From Ruminococcus sp. CAG:563 (GTDB lineage: Bacteria > Bacillota > Clostridia > Oscillospirales > Acutalibacteraceae), in assembly GCA_000434915.1 (NCBI GenBank), contig FR882080.1:26377-90376 (forward strand): a DNA stretch of 64,000 nt, given 5' to 3'. Below are positions 43,286-47,713 of this stretch, one piece after another (the first letter of the stretch is position 1; each line of letters begins with the position of its first letter). The notes beneath the pieces are model-generated. The model was not told the origin of the DNA and did no database searches. It saw nothing but the letters and a program-made list of their open reading frames with translations. Made by a program: the position numbers and the translations under genes.

Positions 43286-44046
43286 ACGAGCATAAATTTG
43301 ATAAAAAAGGTGAAATTTATTCCAAGGCACGTCCGAGCTATCCCGATAAACTCTTTATATATCTTAAAGACCAAAATTTGATTTCGGATAGCACCGTGGC
43401 CGCCGATATAGGCTCCGGCACGGGAATATTTACCGAAAAGCTTTGCCCATATGTAAGCAGAGTTTTTGCGGTTGAGCCGAATGACGGTATGCGTTCGGTC
43501 GCCGAGGATAAATATACCGCATATGAGAACATTATCTCTGTAAACGGAAGTGCCGAGGATACAAAGCTGAGTGATAAAAGCGTTGATTTCATCACCGTTG
43601 CGCAGGCCTTCCACTGGTTTGACAGACAATCGTTTAAAACCGAGTGCCGCCGAATTTTAAGGGATGACGGGAACATTCTGCTTGTGTGGAACGACCGTGA
43701 CACCGAAAGTGAGCTTATCAGGGAAAATTACGATATTAACCGCCGCTTTTGCCCGAACTTCAAAGGCTCATCAAACGGATTTGATTTCAGCAGAGATACA
43801 TTCATAGACTTCTTTGATGACGATTTTGACACGGTTCAATTCAGAAATGACCTGATATATGATGAAAATACCTTTGTTTTAAGATGTCTTTCCTCGTCCT
43901 ATGCTCCGAAACAGGGCGAAGAAAATTATGACGAATATGTCGCCGAACTGCAGGAGCTTTTCAAAAAGCACAGCCTAAACGGCACAGTCTCCTACCCATA
44001 TATTACACGATGCTATATCGGAAGATTAAGCAAACGCTCCGTTTGA
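43282..44046 (+). CDS. Class I SAM-dependent methyltransferase
   Basis: 'DIGSGTGIFT' motif I; 4-nt overlap with mtaB. Confidence 0.65.
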   Translation: MNEHKFDKKGEIYSKARPSYPDKLFIYLKDQNLISDSTVAADIGSGTGIFTEKLCPYVSRVFAVEPNDGMRSVAEDKYTAYENIISVNGSAEDTKLSDKSVDFITVAQAFHWFDRQSFKTECRRILRDDGNILLVWNDRDTESELIRENYDINRRFCPNFKGSSNGFDFSRDTFIDFFDDDFDTVQFRNDLIYDENTFVLRCLSSSYAPKQGEENYDEYVAELQELFKKHSLNGTVSYPYITRCYIGRLSKRSV

Positions 44047-44079
44047 ACTTCAAGCGGAGCGTTTTTCTGCATTCGGTAA

Positions 44080-44475
44080 TTAAAGCAAGCTTTCAAGCGT
44101 GACCGAATCAAAATATTCATTTGTCATGTCGTTAAATTTCTCCCAAAGAGGCAGGGTCTTGCAGTCCTTTTTCCTCGGGCATTCCTCGGCATTGCACGAA
44201 AGACACGCAACGGGGGCAAGGTCACCCTCGGCTGCACGGAGTATCTCCCCTGCTGTGTATTCGCTCGGTGATCCGGTCAGCTTATATCCGCCGCCCTTGC
44301 CGTGAACGCCTTCAACAAAGCCGTTCTTAACGAGCGAAGGCATGATCTGCTCCATATATTTTTTTGAGATACCCTGCCTTGCAACAACGTCCTTCATCGG
44401 GATATATCCCTCGTCCTTGTGCTCTGCAAGGTCAATCATAACCCTAAGTGCATATCTTCCTCTTGTTGAAATCAT
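44080..44475 (-). CDS. Rrf2 family transcriptional regulator (CymR/IscR-like)
   Basis: 'MISTRGRYALRVMIDLA' Rrf2 HTH; downstream of cysK. Confidence 0.8.
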   Translation of the reverse strand: MISTRGRYALRVMIDLAEHKDEGYIPMKDVVARQGISKKYMEQIMPSLVKNGFVEGVHGKGGGYKLTGSPSEYTAGEILRAAEGDLAPVACLSCNAEECPRKKDCKTLPLWEKFNDMTNEYFDSVTLESLL

Positions 44476-44493
44476 TTTAACAACCTCGTAATA

Positions 44494-45420
44494 TTATTCA
44501 AAAAGTGCAGTTGAGAGATATCTGTCGCCTGTGTCCGGAAGCAGTGCAACGATGGTCTTGCCCTCGTTCTCCTCACGCTTTGCAAGCTCGATTGCCGCAT
44601 ATACGGCTGCACCTGCCGAGATGCCTACAAGCACACCTTCGCTGCCGATAAGCTTGCCTGTTGCGAATGCATCCTCATTTGATACAGGGATAATCTCATC
44701 ATAAATTTTTGTGTCAAGAACATCGGGAACAAAGCCTGCGCCGATACCCTGAATCTTATGTGAGCCTGAAACGCCCTGCGAAAGAACCGGTGATGAAAGC
44801 GGCTCAACGGCAACAACCTTGACCTCGGGTTTCTTCTCCTTGAGATATGTGCCTACGCCTGTAACAGTTCCGCCTGTGCCTACGCCTGCAACAAAGATAT
44901 CAACCTCTCCGTCGGTGTCCTCATAGATTTCCGGGCCTGTGGTCTCGTAGTGAGCCTTCGGGTTTGACGGATTGACGAACTGACCGGGAATGAAGCTGTT
45001 CGGATATTCCTTTGCAAGCTCGTCAGCCTTGGCGATTGCGCCCTTCATGCCCTTTGCACCCTCTGTTAAAACAAGTTCGGCGCCGTATGCCTTGATAAGT
45101 CTGCGGCGTTCTTCTGACATAGTTTCCGGCATTACAATGATGATTTTATATCCTCTTGCCGCCGCAACAGCTGCCAGGCCGATACCTGTGTTGCCGCTGG
45201 TCGGCTCAATGATTACCGAGCCTTCTTTGAGCTTGCCCGCTGCTTCTGCGTCGTCAATCATCTTCTTTGCAATTCTGTCCTTAACCGATCCTGCCGGGTT
45301 GAAATATTCAAGCTTTGCAAGAATCTTTGCCTTGAGTCCGTATTTCTTTTCAATATGTGTGAGTTCGAGAAGTGGTGTTTTTCCGATAAGCTGATCTGCT
45401 GATGTATAAATCTTTGACAT
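44494..45420 (-). CDS. cysK: Cysteine synthase A (O-acetylserine sulfhydrylase)
   Basis: PLP-lysine motif '[11 protein letters not shown]', about 308 aa. Confidence 0.9.
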
Positions 45421-45569
45421 AATAATTATCTCCTTAAAATTAAATTAAATATAGTGAATTTGTTTTTTAAATTGTTTTTGAAGAATAGGAATGTCAGCTC
45501 ATACATCGTCCGAATCTGAAGTTACTTCTTAGCATTTTGCCGTAAATAAATCTCACAATATCACTTCCT

Positions 45570-45604
45570 AAAAAAATAACCGAAAAGCTCAGGTGCCTTT
45601 CGGT
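45570..45604 (-). terminator. Intrinsic terminator inside the cysK 5' leader
   Basis: On the minus strand ACCGAAAGG-loop-CTTTTCGGT (9-bp stem, 1 G.U) followed by TATTTTTTT; about 150 nt upstream of the cysK ATG. Confidence 0.6.
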
Positions 45605-45626
45605 GTTTCGACTGAATAAAGTTTAA

Positions 45627-45710
45627 TCAAAACTTAACCGATGGCATGGCAACAAGAGCGCACATACAGCACTCGGTACACATTGAGCAAGCGTTAAATG
45701 ACTTTCTCAT
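45627..45710 (-). CDS. Cys-codon-rich leader peptide (27 aa, MRKSFNACSMCTECCMCALVAMPSVKF)
   Basis: GGAGG RBS 8 nt upstream of the ATG; 5 Cys codons within 10 codons; lies between the promoter and the leader terminator; below the ORF-track cutoff. Confidence 0.4.
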   Translation of the reverse strand: MRKSFNACSMCTECCMCALVAMPSVKF

Positions 45711-45755
45711 TGCCAAATCCTCCGTTTCTTACGTCGTTTTCTTTATGTTGGTGAT

Positions 45756-45784
45756 ATAATAACACCATTTACCTACTTTGTCAA
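45756..45784 (-). promoter_or_regulatory. Consensus sigmaA promoter for the cysK leader (TTGACA-17-TATTAT)
   Basis: Minus strand TTGACA (45784-45779), 17-nt spacer, TATTAT (45761-45756). Confidence 0.55.
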
Positions 45785-45822
45785 TAGGTTAATAGAAAAA
45801 TCTTAAATTATTTTCAAAAAAA

Positions 45823-46464
45823 TTATTGATTATCGTTTTCGAGAAATTCCGCCTTGTTTGCACGGATATAATCCGCCGCAGACTTGTAAATTTCATCCTT
45901 CTTTTCATTCATAAGACTTTCAAACTCTGCGTCATACTTTGCCAAAAGCTCATTATCAACCGACGTAGTCTCGTCGTTGTCGTCGAGCATGATAAACTCC
46001 TTATTGAATATCTCTGCAAATTCGCCGCCGATTGTCTCATTGACCGCCGCCTTTGATGCGGAAAGAAGCGGTTCGCCATTCGAGCGAAAAAACTGGGAAA
46101 GCTTATTCTTGCTGTCCTCAAAGACATAGCCGAGGCAGTAAACATTCTTCTTAACGTCGGATAGCTCCGCAAAAGCATCGTTCATGTTTGTTGCCTTTTC
46201 AAGCTTCATCTGAATATTGGCACACATGCCGACGATCAGCCTGTAATCGTCCTTTTCAGGAAGAAATGTTGTTTCGTCGGGATTTCTGAATTCATTTCTT
46301 AATGCTTTTTCCTTTTCGAGATCGGCGATAATACGCTCCCTTTCTTCATTTCTCCTTTTGCCGGACACAATAGCCTTATACCACACAAAAATCGTCAGGG
46401 CAATTAAAAGCACAAGCACAACCCCTATCCACGGGTGCTGTGCGATATATTGCAACATACTCAT
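45823..46464 (-). CDS. Membrane-anchored protein, function unknown
   Basis: N-terminal TM 'WIGVVLVLLIALTIFVW' then a charged coiled-coil region. Confidence 0.45.
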   Translation of the reverse strand: MSMLQYIAQHPWIGVVLVLLIALTIFVWYKAIVSGKRRNEERERIIADLEKEKALRNEFRNPDETTFLPEKDDYRLIVGMCANIQMKLEKATNMNDAFAELSDVKKNVYCLGYVFEDSKNKLSQFFRSNGEPLLSASKAAVNETIGGEFAEIFNKEFIMLDDNDETTSVDNELLAKYDAEFESLMNEKKDEIYKSAADYIRANKAEFLENDNQ

Positions 46465-46657
46465 TTTTAAAATCCTTTCTTTACTTAGAGTTTTACTTAA
46501 ACAGTATTTTACAAGCTTTACTTTGCGAACATTTTCGGCTTTGAAATATTTTATACAGTCAAAACACTTTGAAGCTGCATTATAGCGAAACCTGTTTTTA
46601 GATTGAATTAAAATTGTTCACAGTGCATTTTGCAGCTTGGGTGCTGTACAATCCTAC

Positions 46658-46880
46658 TTAGCGAGAGATTTTTTCGTTAGACAGTTCAACGTTCTCGCAG
46701 GATTTTTTTGTTAGACAGTTCAAAGTTCTCAAAGGCTATATTCTTATATGTCAAGAGGGCTTTGGGCTATACTACAAAAAAAGAGGCAAACCATTTAGCG
46801 AGAGATTTTTTCGTTAGACAGTTCAAAGTTCTCGAAGGCTATATTCTTATATGCCAAGAGGGCTTTGGGCTGTATAACGG
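46658..46880. repeat. Tandemly duplicated roughly 85-bp intergenic element (two copies about 136 bp apart, plus an internal 34-bp sub-duplication)
   Basis: 'ttagcgagagattttttcgttagacagttcaa[c/a]gttctcg[c/a]agg' plus 'ctatattcttatatg[t/c]caagagggctttgggct' appear twice; 'gttagacagttcaaagttctcaaagg' forms a third partial copy. Confidence 0.8.
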
Positions 46881-46891
46881 AAAAAGATCCG

Positions 46892-47713
46892 CTAAATCAG
46901 TGCTTTGTAGATGTCGCCTTTTTTATACCCCGACAGCTTCGCCGCCTGTTTTGCCGCTTCGCTGACGCTCATGCCGCTTTCAACGCTGTGTCGGGCGCAC
47001 TCTATCGCTTGCTCAAGAGTCATTTTATCTTCTGTCTTTTCGGGCTCTGCACCCTTGATAACAAGAACTATTTCGCCCTTAACACTGCCGTCGGCATACT
47101 TTTCAACAGCTTCATCAAGCGTAGTGCGGATAACCTCCTCGTGAATCTTCGTAATCTCACGGACTATTGCGATTTCACGGTTGCCGAACACCTTGTTCAT
47201 GTCTCGGAGCGTTGCGCCCAGCTTGTGCGGAGCTTCATAGAAAAGCATAGTTCTTGTCTCTTTTTCAAGCGAGATAAGATGCTCACGGCGGCTCGGCTTG
47301 TTCACGCTGAGGAAGCCCTCAAATGTGAAGCGTCCCGACGGAAAGCCGGAAAGTGCAAGCGCAGTTGAAAAAGCGCAAGGGCCGGGAACGGATTCAACCT
47401 CCACTCCCCTGTCGTGACAAAGACGTACAAGATCCTCACCCGGATCGGAGATGGCAGGCATGCCTGCGTCGGTCACGATTGCACCGTTCTCCCCGGCAAG
47501 AATCCTTTGAACTATGGCTTCGCCATGCTCCTTTTTGTTATATTCAAAATAGCTCATCATGCTCTTTTTTATACCGAAATGATTGAGCAGTTTGAGGGTT
47601 ACTCGTGTATCCTCGGCAGCAATGAAATCGACGCTTTTCAGCGTCTCAATCGCACGGGGCGAAAAATCCCCGAGGTTGCCTATCGGAGTTCCGACAACAT
47701 AAAGCTTACTCAT
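46892..47713 (-). CDS. rsmI: 16S rRNA (cytidine1402-2'-O)-methyltransferase
   Basis: 'LYVVGTPIGNLGD' tetrapyrrole-methylase-type N-terminus. Confidence 0.85.
   Translation of the reverse strand: MSKLYVVGTPIGNLGDFSPRAIETLKSVDFIAAEDTRVTLKLLNHFGIKKSMMSYFEYNKKEHGEAIVQRILAGENGAIVTDAGMPAISDPGEDLVRLCHDRGVEVESVPGPCAFSTALALSGFPSGRFTFEGFLSVNKPSRREHLISLEKETRTMLFYEAPHKLGATLRDMNKVFGNREIAIVREITKIHEEVIRTTLDEAVEKYADGSVKGEIVLVIKGAEPEKTEDKMTLEQAIECARHSVESGMSVSEAAKQAAKLSGYKKGDIYKALI

Follow-up and report, generated by a model that had tools for sequence, protein, structure and literature searches.

Introduction

Leader-peptide attenuation is a textbook mechanism for the control of Trp, His, Leu, Thr and Phe genes in Proteobacteria. 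To our knowledge it is seldom met in Firmicutes, in which T-boxes and repressors prevail, and in the Clostridia lineage amino-acid genes are as a rule controlled by a T-box or a protein. CymR-CysK represses the cysteine genes of Bacillus subtilis and Staphylococcus aureus. Leader peptides described in Firmicutes are few, such as the His leader of Bacillus hisS/hisZ paralogues (PMC2965389) and the Leu-rich peptide of S. aureus ilv-leu (PMC5794164). For cysteine, candidate leader peptides without terminators are known from Mycobacterium, Propionibacterium and Bifidobacterium (Seliverstov et al. 2005, PMC1262725), and the polycysteine leaderless open reading frames (ORFs) of M. smegmatis act on translation (Canestrari et al., bioRxiv 10.1101/834739). 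In Rhodobacterales, cysS is predicted to be preceded by uORFC-8-2, an upstream ORF (uORF) with Cys codons followed by a terminator stem and a U-run (Brewer et al. 2021, PMC8632094). In Clostridium perfringens a Cys-specific T-box lies upstream of cysK-cysE (André et al. 2010, PMC2940859), and other clostridia were noted there as having no known cysK mechanism. Here we analyzed the 5' leader of the cysK-rrf2 operon in a 64,000-nucleotide stretch of Ruminococcus sp. CAG:563 (contig FR882080.1, positions 26,377 to 90,376; the whole stretch is hereafter called the window). This leader contains a Cys-rich small ORF (ORF1) followed by an intrinsic terminator, and it most likely acts as a ribosome-mediated leader-peptide transcription attenuator reading the supply of charged tRNA-Cys.

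The locus resembles the trpL, hisL, leuL and thrL leaders of Proteobacteria in its promoter, its ORF of cognate codons led by a Shine-Dalgarno (SD) sequence, its 1:2, 2:3 and 3:4 helices and its terminator before a biosynthetic gene, a class to which the Bacillus and S. aureus leaders cited above also belong. It differs from the classical attenuators in that it would sense cysteine, is found in a Clostridia host of the Acutalibacteraceae type and shares no sequence homology with them. Moreover, its ORF itself contains the 5' arm of the antiterminator, just ahead of the stop codon, while the trpL arm follows the stop, and its region 1 includes the SD and AUG of ORF1 itself, unlike in classical leaders. 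Like the actinobacterial and mycobacterial Cys leaders, it places a short ORF with a Cys-codon cluster before cysteine-metabolism genes and has ribosome pausing as the proposed sensor. However, the mycobacterial ORFs are leaderless, have no intrinsic terminator and act through a stalled ribosome that opens a duplex hiding the downstream SD. ORF1, in contrast, is SD-led behind a 5' untranslated region of ~40 nt; no duplex of the mycobacterial type with a downstream SD was found at ORF1, which is followed instead by a strong intrinsic terminator and its antiterminator. The Rhodobacterales uORFC-8-2 carries tandem Cys codons at approximately codons 14-15, as does ORF1 at codons 14-15, but it has only two Cys codons, precedes cysS and not cysK, belongs to another phylum with another sequence and is a prediction without experimental support. 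Finally, the C. perfringens T-box serves the same gene, the same signal (uncharged versus charged tRNA-Cys) and the same output (premature termination). A T-box binds the tRNA directly via its specifier codon and T-box sequence, whereas the window has no such motifs and a ribosome would replace the RNA sensor.

Architecture of the cysK leader

Coordinates are those of the window, in which the leader, cysK and rrf2 are all on the minus strand (Table 1). An earlier note on this DNA, made from the sequence alone, had described here a sigmaA promoter (TTGACA-17-TATTAT), a GGAGG ribosome-binding site with a 27-codon ORF holding five Cys codons within codons 8-17, and a terminator about 22 nt past the ORF stop and about 150 nt before cysK. 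Every one of these elements was found in its place. The promoter matches 11/12 consensus positions, has a TG extension and is the top promoter-like site in the interval 44000-47000. The terminator stem has 10 pairs (-14.4 kcal/mol) and begins 22 nt past the ORF1 stop codon; 150 nt separate the terminator end from the cysK ATG, with no promoter-like site detected in this interval. Beyond what the earlier note described, the leader has a candidate operator palindrome that overlaps the -35 box and, past the terminator, another small ORF (ORF2) that is conserved.

The density of Cys codons in ORF1 is exceptional. Among 1,486 small ORFs of the 64-kb window (8-80 codons, any start codon, both strands) it is the sole one with at least 5 Cys per 12 residues, while the Cys share of codons in the window genes is 1.9%. 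We found no known RNA family that could account for the leader: in Rfam searches, no family matched 45350-45900 at E <= 10 apart from noise and nothing reached the gathering score in the entire window. The T-box covariance model (RF00230) had no match in the window, neither it nor any other Rfam family matched in 20 related cysK loci, and no specifier loop or T-box motif was found. The degenerate T-box-like string that the earlier note had pointed out inside ORF1 is therefore no T-box, as Rfam has no match there. Four variants of ORF1 gave no family match in Pfam or NCBIfam, SCIFF included.

Table 1. Features of the cysK leader and its genes in the window, and leader peptides of related loci
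Feature	Coordinates	Strand	Remarks
Palindrome ACCTATTGACAAAGTAGGT (ACCTA-N9-TAGGT)	45771..45789	-	overlaps -35 box; candidate Rrf2 operator
Sigma-70/SigA-type promoter	45756..45784	-	-35 TTGACA 45784-45779; 17-nt spacer; -10 TATTAT 45761-45756
ORF1 SD GGAGG	45719..45723	-	8 nt before ATG
Region 1 (SD through first ORF1 codons)	45707..45726	-	partner of region 2 without ORF1 translation
ORF1, 27 codons, leader peptide MRKSFNACSMCTECCMCALVAMPSVKF	45627..45710	-	ATG start 45710; Cys codons 8 (45689-45687), 11 (45680-45678), 14 (45671-45669), 15 (45668-45666), 17 (45662-45660)
Region 2 (ORF1 codons 19-25)	45636..45655	-	includes antiterminator 5' arm UGCCAUCGGU, 45646-45637
Small hairpin GUUUUGAUU / AGUCGAAAC with ORF1 stop codon	45605..45633	-	stacks within antiterminator
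Intrinsic terminator	45570..45604	-	region 3 ACCGAAAGGC 45604-45595; loop; region 4 GCUUUUCGGU 45588-45579; U7 45576-45570
ORF2 with SD, 20 codons, MRFIYGKMLRSNFRFGRCMS	45494..45569	-	AGGAAG 45569-45564; GTG 45556; ORF 45556-45494
cysK (O-acetylserine sulfhydrylase), regulated gene	44494..45420	-	ATG 45420; NCBIfam TIGR01139, 452 bits, cut-off 351
Rrf2-family regulator, four-Cys C-terminal motif (CxxC...C...C)	44080..44475	-	downstream of and co-directional with cysK
Leader peptide, L099			MRKSFNACSMCNECCMCALVVMPSVKF
Leader peptide, L086			MKKVLNSCTMCAECCMCAIVVIPSFSVSK
Leader peptide, L001			MKSKLNSVCCECCMCACVAVPAIPETI
Leader peptide, L089			MKKMFNSVCCERCMCACVAVPAVPETT
Leader peptide, L095-98			MKKSFNMCS[I/G]CNERCCCAFVAVSSFRAVPESV
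Leader peptide, L090-94, L104			MKKTAMNRMNRWNCACCQCVCFAMSFSDMSSERGSLK and relatives
Leader peptide, L100-102			MKKLGVMCKNECMCGCCQRACFAMSFSDMFSERGS
Leader peptide, L030			MKKLCNRIMTRMCMPECICRCCTVYKCKLSSDASCGSYLAYFF
Leader peptide, L105			MRCCMMTSFDLPFVCPRA

Cys-rich leaders in related genomes

Relatives were compared in a set of 80 cysK loci, one genome per species with CysK, to which we added contigs carrying CysK variants 89-94% identical to the window CysK. Leader diversity was drawn from these CysK homologues and their contigs; a metagenome scan with a degenerate ORF1 DNA pattern returned five near-identical loci only, fit for micro-variation and not for covariation. The window CysK is 99% identical to a protein labelled 'Ruminococcus sp. 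CAG:488', and the relatives at 89-94% identity are labelled as metagenome-assembled genomes of Acutalibacteraceae, Oscillospiraceae or Clostridiaceae from human, pig and other guts. In most of the 80 loci cysK is located directly behind a sulfhydrylase gene or has a simple promoter, and a Cys density like that of ORF1 was found in only 2/80 upstream regions, one homologous (L001) and one analogous (L030). With the added contigs, homologous or analogous Cys-cluster ORFs precede cysK in L001, L030, L081-L102, L104 and L105.

These leaders fall into distinct groups. Clade A comprises the window, L081-85, L099, L086-88, L001, L089 and L095-98; here the Cys cluster is kept and the remainder of the peptide varies. 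The gene order of rsmI-like gene, gene for a 209-213-amino-acid protein, leader, cysK and rrf2 is common to L001, L086, L089 and L095-99. Clade B (L090-94, L104 and L100-102), L030 and L105 carry unrelated peptides (MKKTAMNRMNRWNCACCQCVCF..., MKKLGVMCKNECMCGCCQRAC..., MKKLCNRIMTRMCMPECICRCC..., MRCCMMTSF...). Overall, we found at least five different leader ORFs, each with an SD, an ATG, 3-8 clustered Cys codons and a hairpin plus T-run terminator. A Cys-clustered small ORF thus precedes cysK in relatives of the window while the rest of the peptide diverges or is replaced. As far as the sequences tell, regulatory codons and architecture that are kept while the peptide drifts or is swapped are the signature of a leader peptide, and conservation of the device and not of the peptide argues against a functional small protein. 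L001, L095 and clade B likewise have a small hairpin across the stop codon, and the clade-A alignment shows no conservation of the spacer between the terminator and cysK past the ORF2 stop.

All leader variants are located directly upstream of cysK among varying neighbours (NUDIX, CorA, glycosyltransferase, GtrA and mnmA genes), and in L090-92 the gene upstream of the leader is divergent. Given these varied contexts and the divergent upstream gene, the cassette therefore travels with cysK. We also considered whether the terminator might simply be the end of the upstream 213-amino-acid gene; this was ruled out by clade B, where the leader terminator is found behind a divergent gene. In L090-L094, L100-L102, L104 and L105 the Cys leader heads a longer operon, with cysK followed by mnmA and then, except in L105, by rrf2. 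The mnmA product is a tRNA 2-thiouridylase, a consumer of cysteine-derived sulfur, and in L030 mnmA is upstream of the leader.

Mutually exclusive RNA structures

In the predicted ribosome-free fold, the leader forms a long helix between regions 1 and 2 (45726-45707 : 45655-45636), the stop-codon hairpin and the terminator, and the fold of the leader RNA is more stable than those of its shuffles (z = -2.4). Base pairs were counted on a 13-sequence clade-A alignment, with helix 1:2 taken from RNAalifold and with controls in which the partners were slid by 1-3 columns or shuffled. Helix 1:2 has 17 pairs, 6 of them with compensatory changes, and 90.5% of its cells are paired versus 38-49% in the slid controls; none of the shuffles equalled it in the share of paired cells or in covariation score. 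For the terminator, 100% of cells are paired across the 13 sequences. Formal pair counts were limited to these two structures because MAFFT put the antiterminator arms of different subclades in different columns, and the antiterminator was judged per lineage.

For that purpose the footprint of a ribosome at the last Cys codon of the cluster was removed, only the RNA before the 3' arm of the terminator was folded, and each lineage was compared with 200 dinucleotide shuffles of the upstream segment. In the window, this nascent RNA pairs UGCC-A-UCGGU (45646-45637) with ACCGA-AA-GGCA (45604-45594), which includes the terminator 5' arm, on top of the stop-codon hairpin (-17.3 kcal/mol). Engaging the terminator arm gains -10.6 kcal/mol versus -3.2 +/- 2.0 in the shuffles, of which 1/200 was as good. 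In every lineage the terminator 5' arm pairs with distal codons of ORF1, yet the arms differ in sequence and occupy non-homologous positions: a perfect UUUCGGUUUC / GAAACCGAAA in L086, GCC-A-UUCCGG / CCGGAAGGC in L001, CCGAU..GUCCUCCG / CGGGGAC..AUCG in clade B, GCAAGCUCUCG / CGGGAGCUUGU in L030 and CUGCCC...CGCGCG / GCGCGGGCAG in L105. The number of equally good shuffles (of 200) was low in most of clade A (1 in L086, 0 in L001, 5 in L099 and 9 in L089), as well as in clade B (7 in L090, 11 in L092, 11 in L100 and 22 in L104), L030 (1) and L105 (16), and across five independent lineages the combined Fisher P was 4.4e-4. At position 5 of the terminator 5' arm, the pair with the antiterminator partner is A:U in the window and L086, G:C in L001, L089 and L095, and G:U in L081 and L099, with U as the terminator partner of this position throughout. 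The change is thus compensatory and specific to the antiterminator.

The leader has all the structural features that define a leader-peptide attenuator, namely an SD-led ORF, Cys codons, a terminator, an antiterminator and a 1:2 helix. The attenuator proposed in the earlier note is supported by the mutually exclusive pairings, the conserved Cys-codon ORFs and the lack of a T-box; it is based on the elements of the sequence and how they are conserved, on the alternative pairings and on their covariation. From here we infer ribosome stalling, kinetic competition and a response to cysteine as follows. Transcription would start ~40 nt upstream of ORF1. If ORF1 were untranslated, region 1 would pair with region 2, regions 3 and 4 would form the terminator and the transcript would end at U7. 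When cysteine is ample, the ribosome would pass the five Cys codons to the stop codon and cover region 2 and the stop-codon hairpin, so that the terminator would form again; in clade A the antiterminator 5' arm ends 4-8 nt before the stop, where it is covered by a ribosome at the stop codon. When Cys-tRNA is scarce, a stall in codons 8-17 would part region 1 from region 2, leaving 45646-45637 free to pair with the emerging terminator 5' arm. The terminator would thus be blocked and the polymerase would run into ORF2 and cysK.

Several observations weigh against an attenuator of this kind. The leader is dispensable in nature, because a close relative (L103) lacks all of it. Over window positions 45321-42993, from about cysK codon 33 to a MiaB-like gene, L103 is 95% identical in DNA and its Rrf2 is 100% identical, but the cysK 5' end and everything upstream are replaced (L103 positions 1-1600). 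There is no ORF1, terminator or ORF2 in this region, only a promoter and a CCTA-N9-TAGG site, which suggests, from the sequence comparison, a recombination breakpoint inside cysK. As for the RNA, the structure used for the pair counts came from the very alignment on which it was scored, and the antiterminator of L095-98 is present but no better than shuffles (76-94/200). Full-length folds with a stalled ribosome keep the window terminator as the minimum-energy structure: the complete RNA with the terminator reaches -20.8 to -21.1 kcal/mol, 3.5-3.8 kcal/mol below what the shorter nascent RNA attains with the antiterminator (-17.3 kcal/mol). Antitermination would therefore have to work kinetically, like that of other attenuators. 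The 5' arm of clade B ends ~17 nt ahead of the stop codon, so that a terminating ribosome would mask only part of it. Lastly, helix 1:2 buries the SD and AUG of ORF1 itself, which could limit ORF1 translation.

A second small ORF after the terminator

ORF2 starts directly past the U-tract of the terminator and is translatable from read-through transcripts only. Its start codon is ATG in L095-98. In the clade-A alignment, conservation is high over ORF2 and collapses past its stop codon. Between the window and L086 there are 8 synonymous changes and 1 non-synonymous change (pS 0.76, pN 0.02, the proportions of synonymous and non-synonymous differences). Four different codons are used for Leu9, while Arg17-Cys18 is CGA-UGU (45508-45503) in every sequence; in the window genes CGA makes up 7.9% of Arg codons and UGU 32.5% of Cys codons. 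This substitution pattern indicates that ORF2 is translated and constrained, with its peptide under strong purifying selection.

Similar uORFs are found without a Cys-rich leader. A uORF of 12-26 codons with an invariant CGATGT and an [F/L]-R-C core is the sole leader element in 11/80 cysK loci (L007, L011, L012, L016, L018, L019, L022, L027, L036, L043 and L052), and an [F/L]-R-C uORF is also present in L001, after the ORF1 terminator, and in L105 (1398-1436). CGATGT occurs 40-130 nt upstream of cysK in 12 loci (the 11 and L001) versus 2.6 expected (Poisson P = 1.6e-5), in 12/12 cases in frame behind a start codon. No Rfam family corresponds to this uORF, and no description of it was found in the literature searched. 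In six of 12 loci (the 11 sole-ORF2 loci and L105), namely L007, L012, L016, L036, L043 and L052, pairing of CGAUGU with the cysK SD or start is above that of shuffles, which by analogy suggests a translational attenuator of the mycobacterial type. Such an anti-SD role was dropped for the window, where, as in the rest of clade A, CGAUGU pairs with the initiation region of cysK no better than shuffles do. By analogy with other systems, candidate modes of action for ORF2 are tna-like shielding from Rho, ermC-like stabilization of the mRNA through ribosome stalling, or a 'hungry codon' assisted by the nascent peptide.

The poly-Cys attenuator and ORF2 might together form a two-stage ribosomal cysteine sensor, with ORF2 belonging to a widespread and undescribed class of Oscillospirales cysK leader peptides; we offer this only tentatively and lean somewhat against it. 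The single Cys codon of ORF2 would be hypersensitive through a rare codon pair, with CGA in the P site (inosine wobble) and UGU in the A site (G:U wobble), and in clade A the conserved nascent peptide would further sensitize it. A ribosome stalled on ORF2 would turn cysK on, at the 11 sole-ORF2 loci by uncovering the cysK ribosome-binding site and in the window by blocking access of Rho or of a 5'-to-3' ribonuclease. Another ORF in this interval, which resembled a coupling device, was rejected: an out-of-frame ORF of 26 codons (45426-45506, minus strand), with its AUG within CGAUGU and its UAA within the cysK SD, is not conserved in L086 and L095. A similar out-of-frame ORF in L001 ends at the SD, and that of the window is probably fortuitous.

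The Rrf2 regulator and its candidate operator

The ACCTA-N9-TAGGT palindrome occurs once in the window, with 0.08 occurrences expected by chance, and is invariant in 13 clade-A leaders. The shorter form CCTA-N9-TAGG precedes cysK in 18/80 representative loci, whose record labels indicate several phyla, and in every locus that has a leader, often with a second site just past the -10 box. An Rrf2 homologue is encoded within 3 kb of cysK in 43/80 loci. From its position and conservation, the palindrome probably serves as operator for the Rrf2 regulator encoded downstream. The earlier note had called this regulator CymR-like. Its assignment to the Rrf2 family stands, with only the superfamily model TIGR00738 passed, whereas CymR does not: the protein scored 94.7 bits against the CymR model (NCBIfam NF047409, cut-off 195) and 107 against IscR (cut-off 207). 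The closest solved relatives are 4CIC, CymR (2Y75) and IscR. The locus is like the CymR system in having an Rrf2-family regulator linked to cysK and a palindrome at the promoter, but its Rrf2 protein is under the equivalog cut-off and has the four-Cys motif of the iron-sulfur-binding Rrf2 type, and its candidate operator appears to differ from the published CymR box. Most simply, the window Rrf2 protein would be an auto-regulated repressor of the cysK promoter. It is likely that the attenuator is accompanied by two further layers, Rrf2 repression via ACCTA-N9-TAGGT and a second translated small ORF after the terminator.

Elsewhere in the neighbourhood, a direct repeat is located between the rsmI-like gene and the 213-amino-acid gene (46658-46887, plus strand). 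It consists of two 84-nt copies, 103 nt apart and 90% identical, and a third partial copy, with an internal imperfect inverted repeat.

Alternative explanations

Cys-rich precursors of ribosomally synthesized and post-translationally modified peptides (RiPPs) are common in Clostridia, and ORF1 comes with its own promoter, terminator and strong SD, and with a radical-SAM gene 2 kb away. It might then be a stand-alone gene for a small Cys-rich peptide, either metal- or redox-binding or a SCIFF-type RiPP precursor, and cysK would be expressed independently. We regard this as very improbable. The ORF1 peptide is unconserved outside the Cys cluster and is exchanged for unrelated Cys-rich peptides in clade B, L030 and L105, always directly before cysK, and the database searches described above, in which SCIFF was included, connected it with no family. 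The radical-SAM gene encodes a methylthiotransferase of the MiaB type (UPF0004/Radical_SAM/TRAM) and no maturase, and is absent in the other contexts; no maturase is conserved beside the leader across contexts. Independent expression of cysK is also hard to reconcile with the lack of a promoter after the terminator, and the 3' codons of ORF1 and the terminator covary as RNA.

A different view would leave regulation to Rrf2 repression of the promoter, with the hairpin and U7 serving as a constitutive partial terminator or insulator and the Cys codons arising as a by-product of the GAGUGCUGUAUGUGCGCUC hairpin. The operator palindrome is indeed the most widely conserved element, the close relative L103 makes do with promoter and operator, and part of the Cys cluster falls within the conserved apical hairpin (helix 3). 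However, Cys clusters recur without the apical hairpin in the unrelated contexts of clade B, L030 and L105, in every case in the frame opened by an SD-led ATG, and the antiterminator is re-created in each lineage, which makes this account just as improbable as the stand-alone peptide. Slightly less probable still is a switch in which a ligand, a tRNA or a protein binds the RNA, as in an unrecognised riboswitch or T-box-like element, and acts on the same terminator with the ORF being incidental. The T-box control of cysK in C. perfringens (PMC2940859) and the better-than-shuffled fold of the leader speak for such a switch, but no Rfam match was found at any threshold and no specifier-loop or T-box motif was detected, and the leaders of clade A, clade B, L030 and L105 share only the ORF, the Cys codons and the terminator logic, with no other sequence or structure in common.

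Discussion

The cysK leader of the window is most likely a classical control device, here used for cysteine, in a group where it was not previously described. In the full-text literature that we searched, whose coverage is incomplete, no Firmicutes cysK was described as having a Cys leader peptide ahead of it, and the sole experimentally supported case found for cysteine is translational and mycobacterial. If our reading is true, gut Clostridia would possess a complete terminator-based Cys attenuator that was re-invented with different peptides in sister lineages, and a leader peptide could functionally replace a T-box at the same gene. The leader would also offer a compact, portable cysteine-responsive part. 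Similarly, the CGA-UGU uORF, if it acts as proposed, would make amino-acid sensing assisted by a codon pair and the nascent chain directly testable in bacteria. The layered design, with Rrf2 operator, poly-Cys attenuator and second uORF, lets one ask why a gene needs three sensors of the same pathway, and the natural leader-less relative L103 provides a ready comparison.

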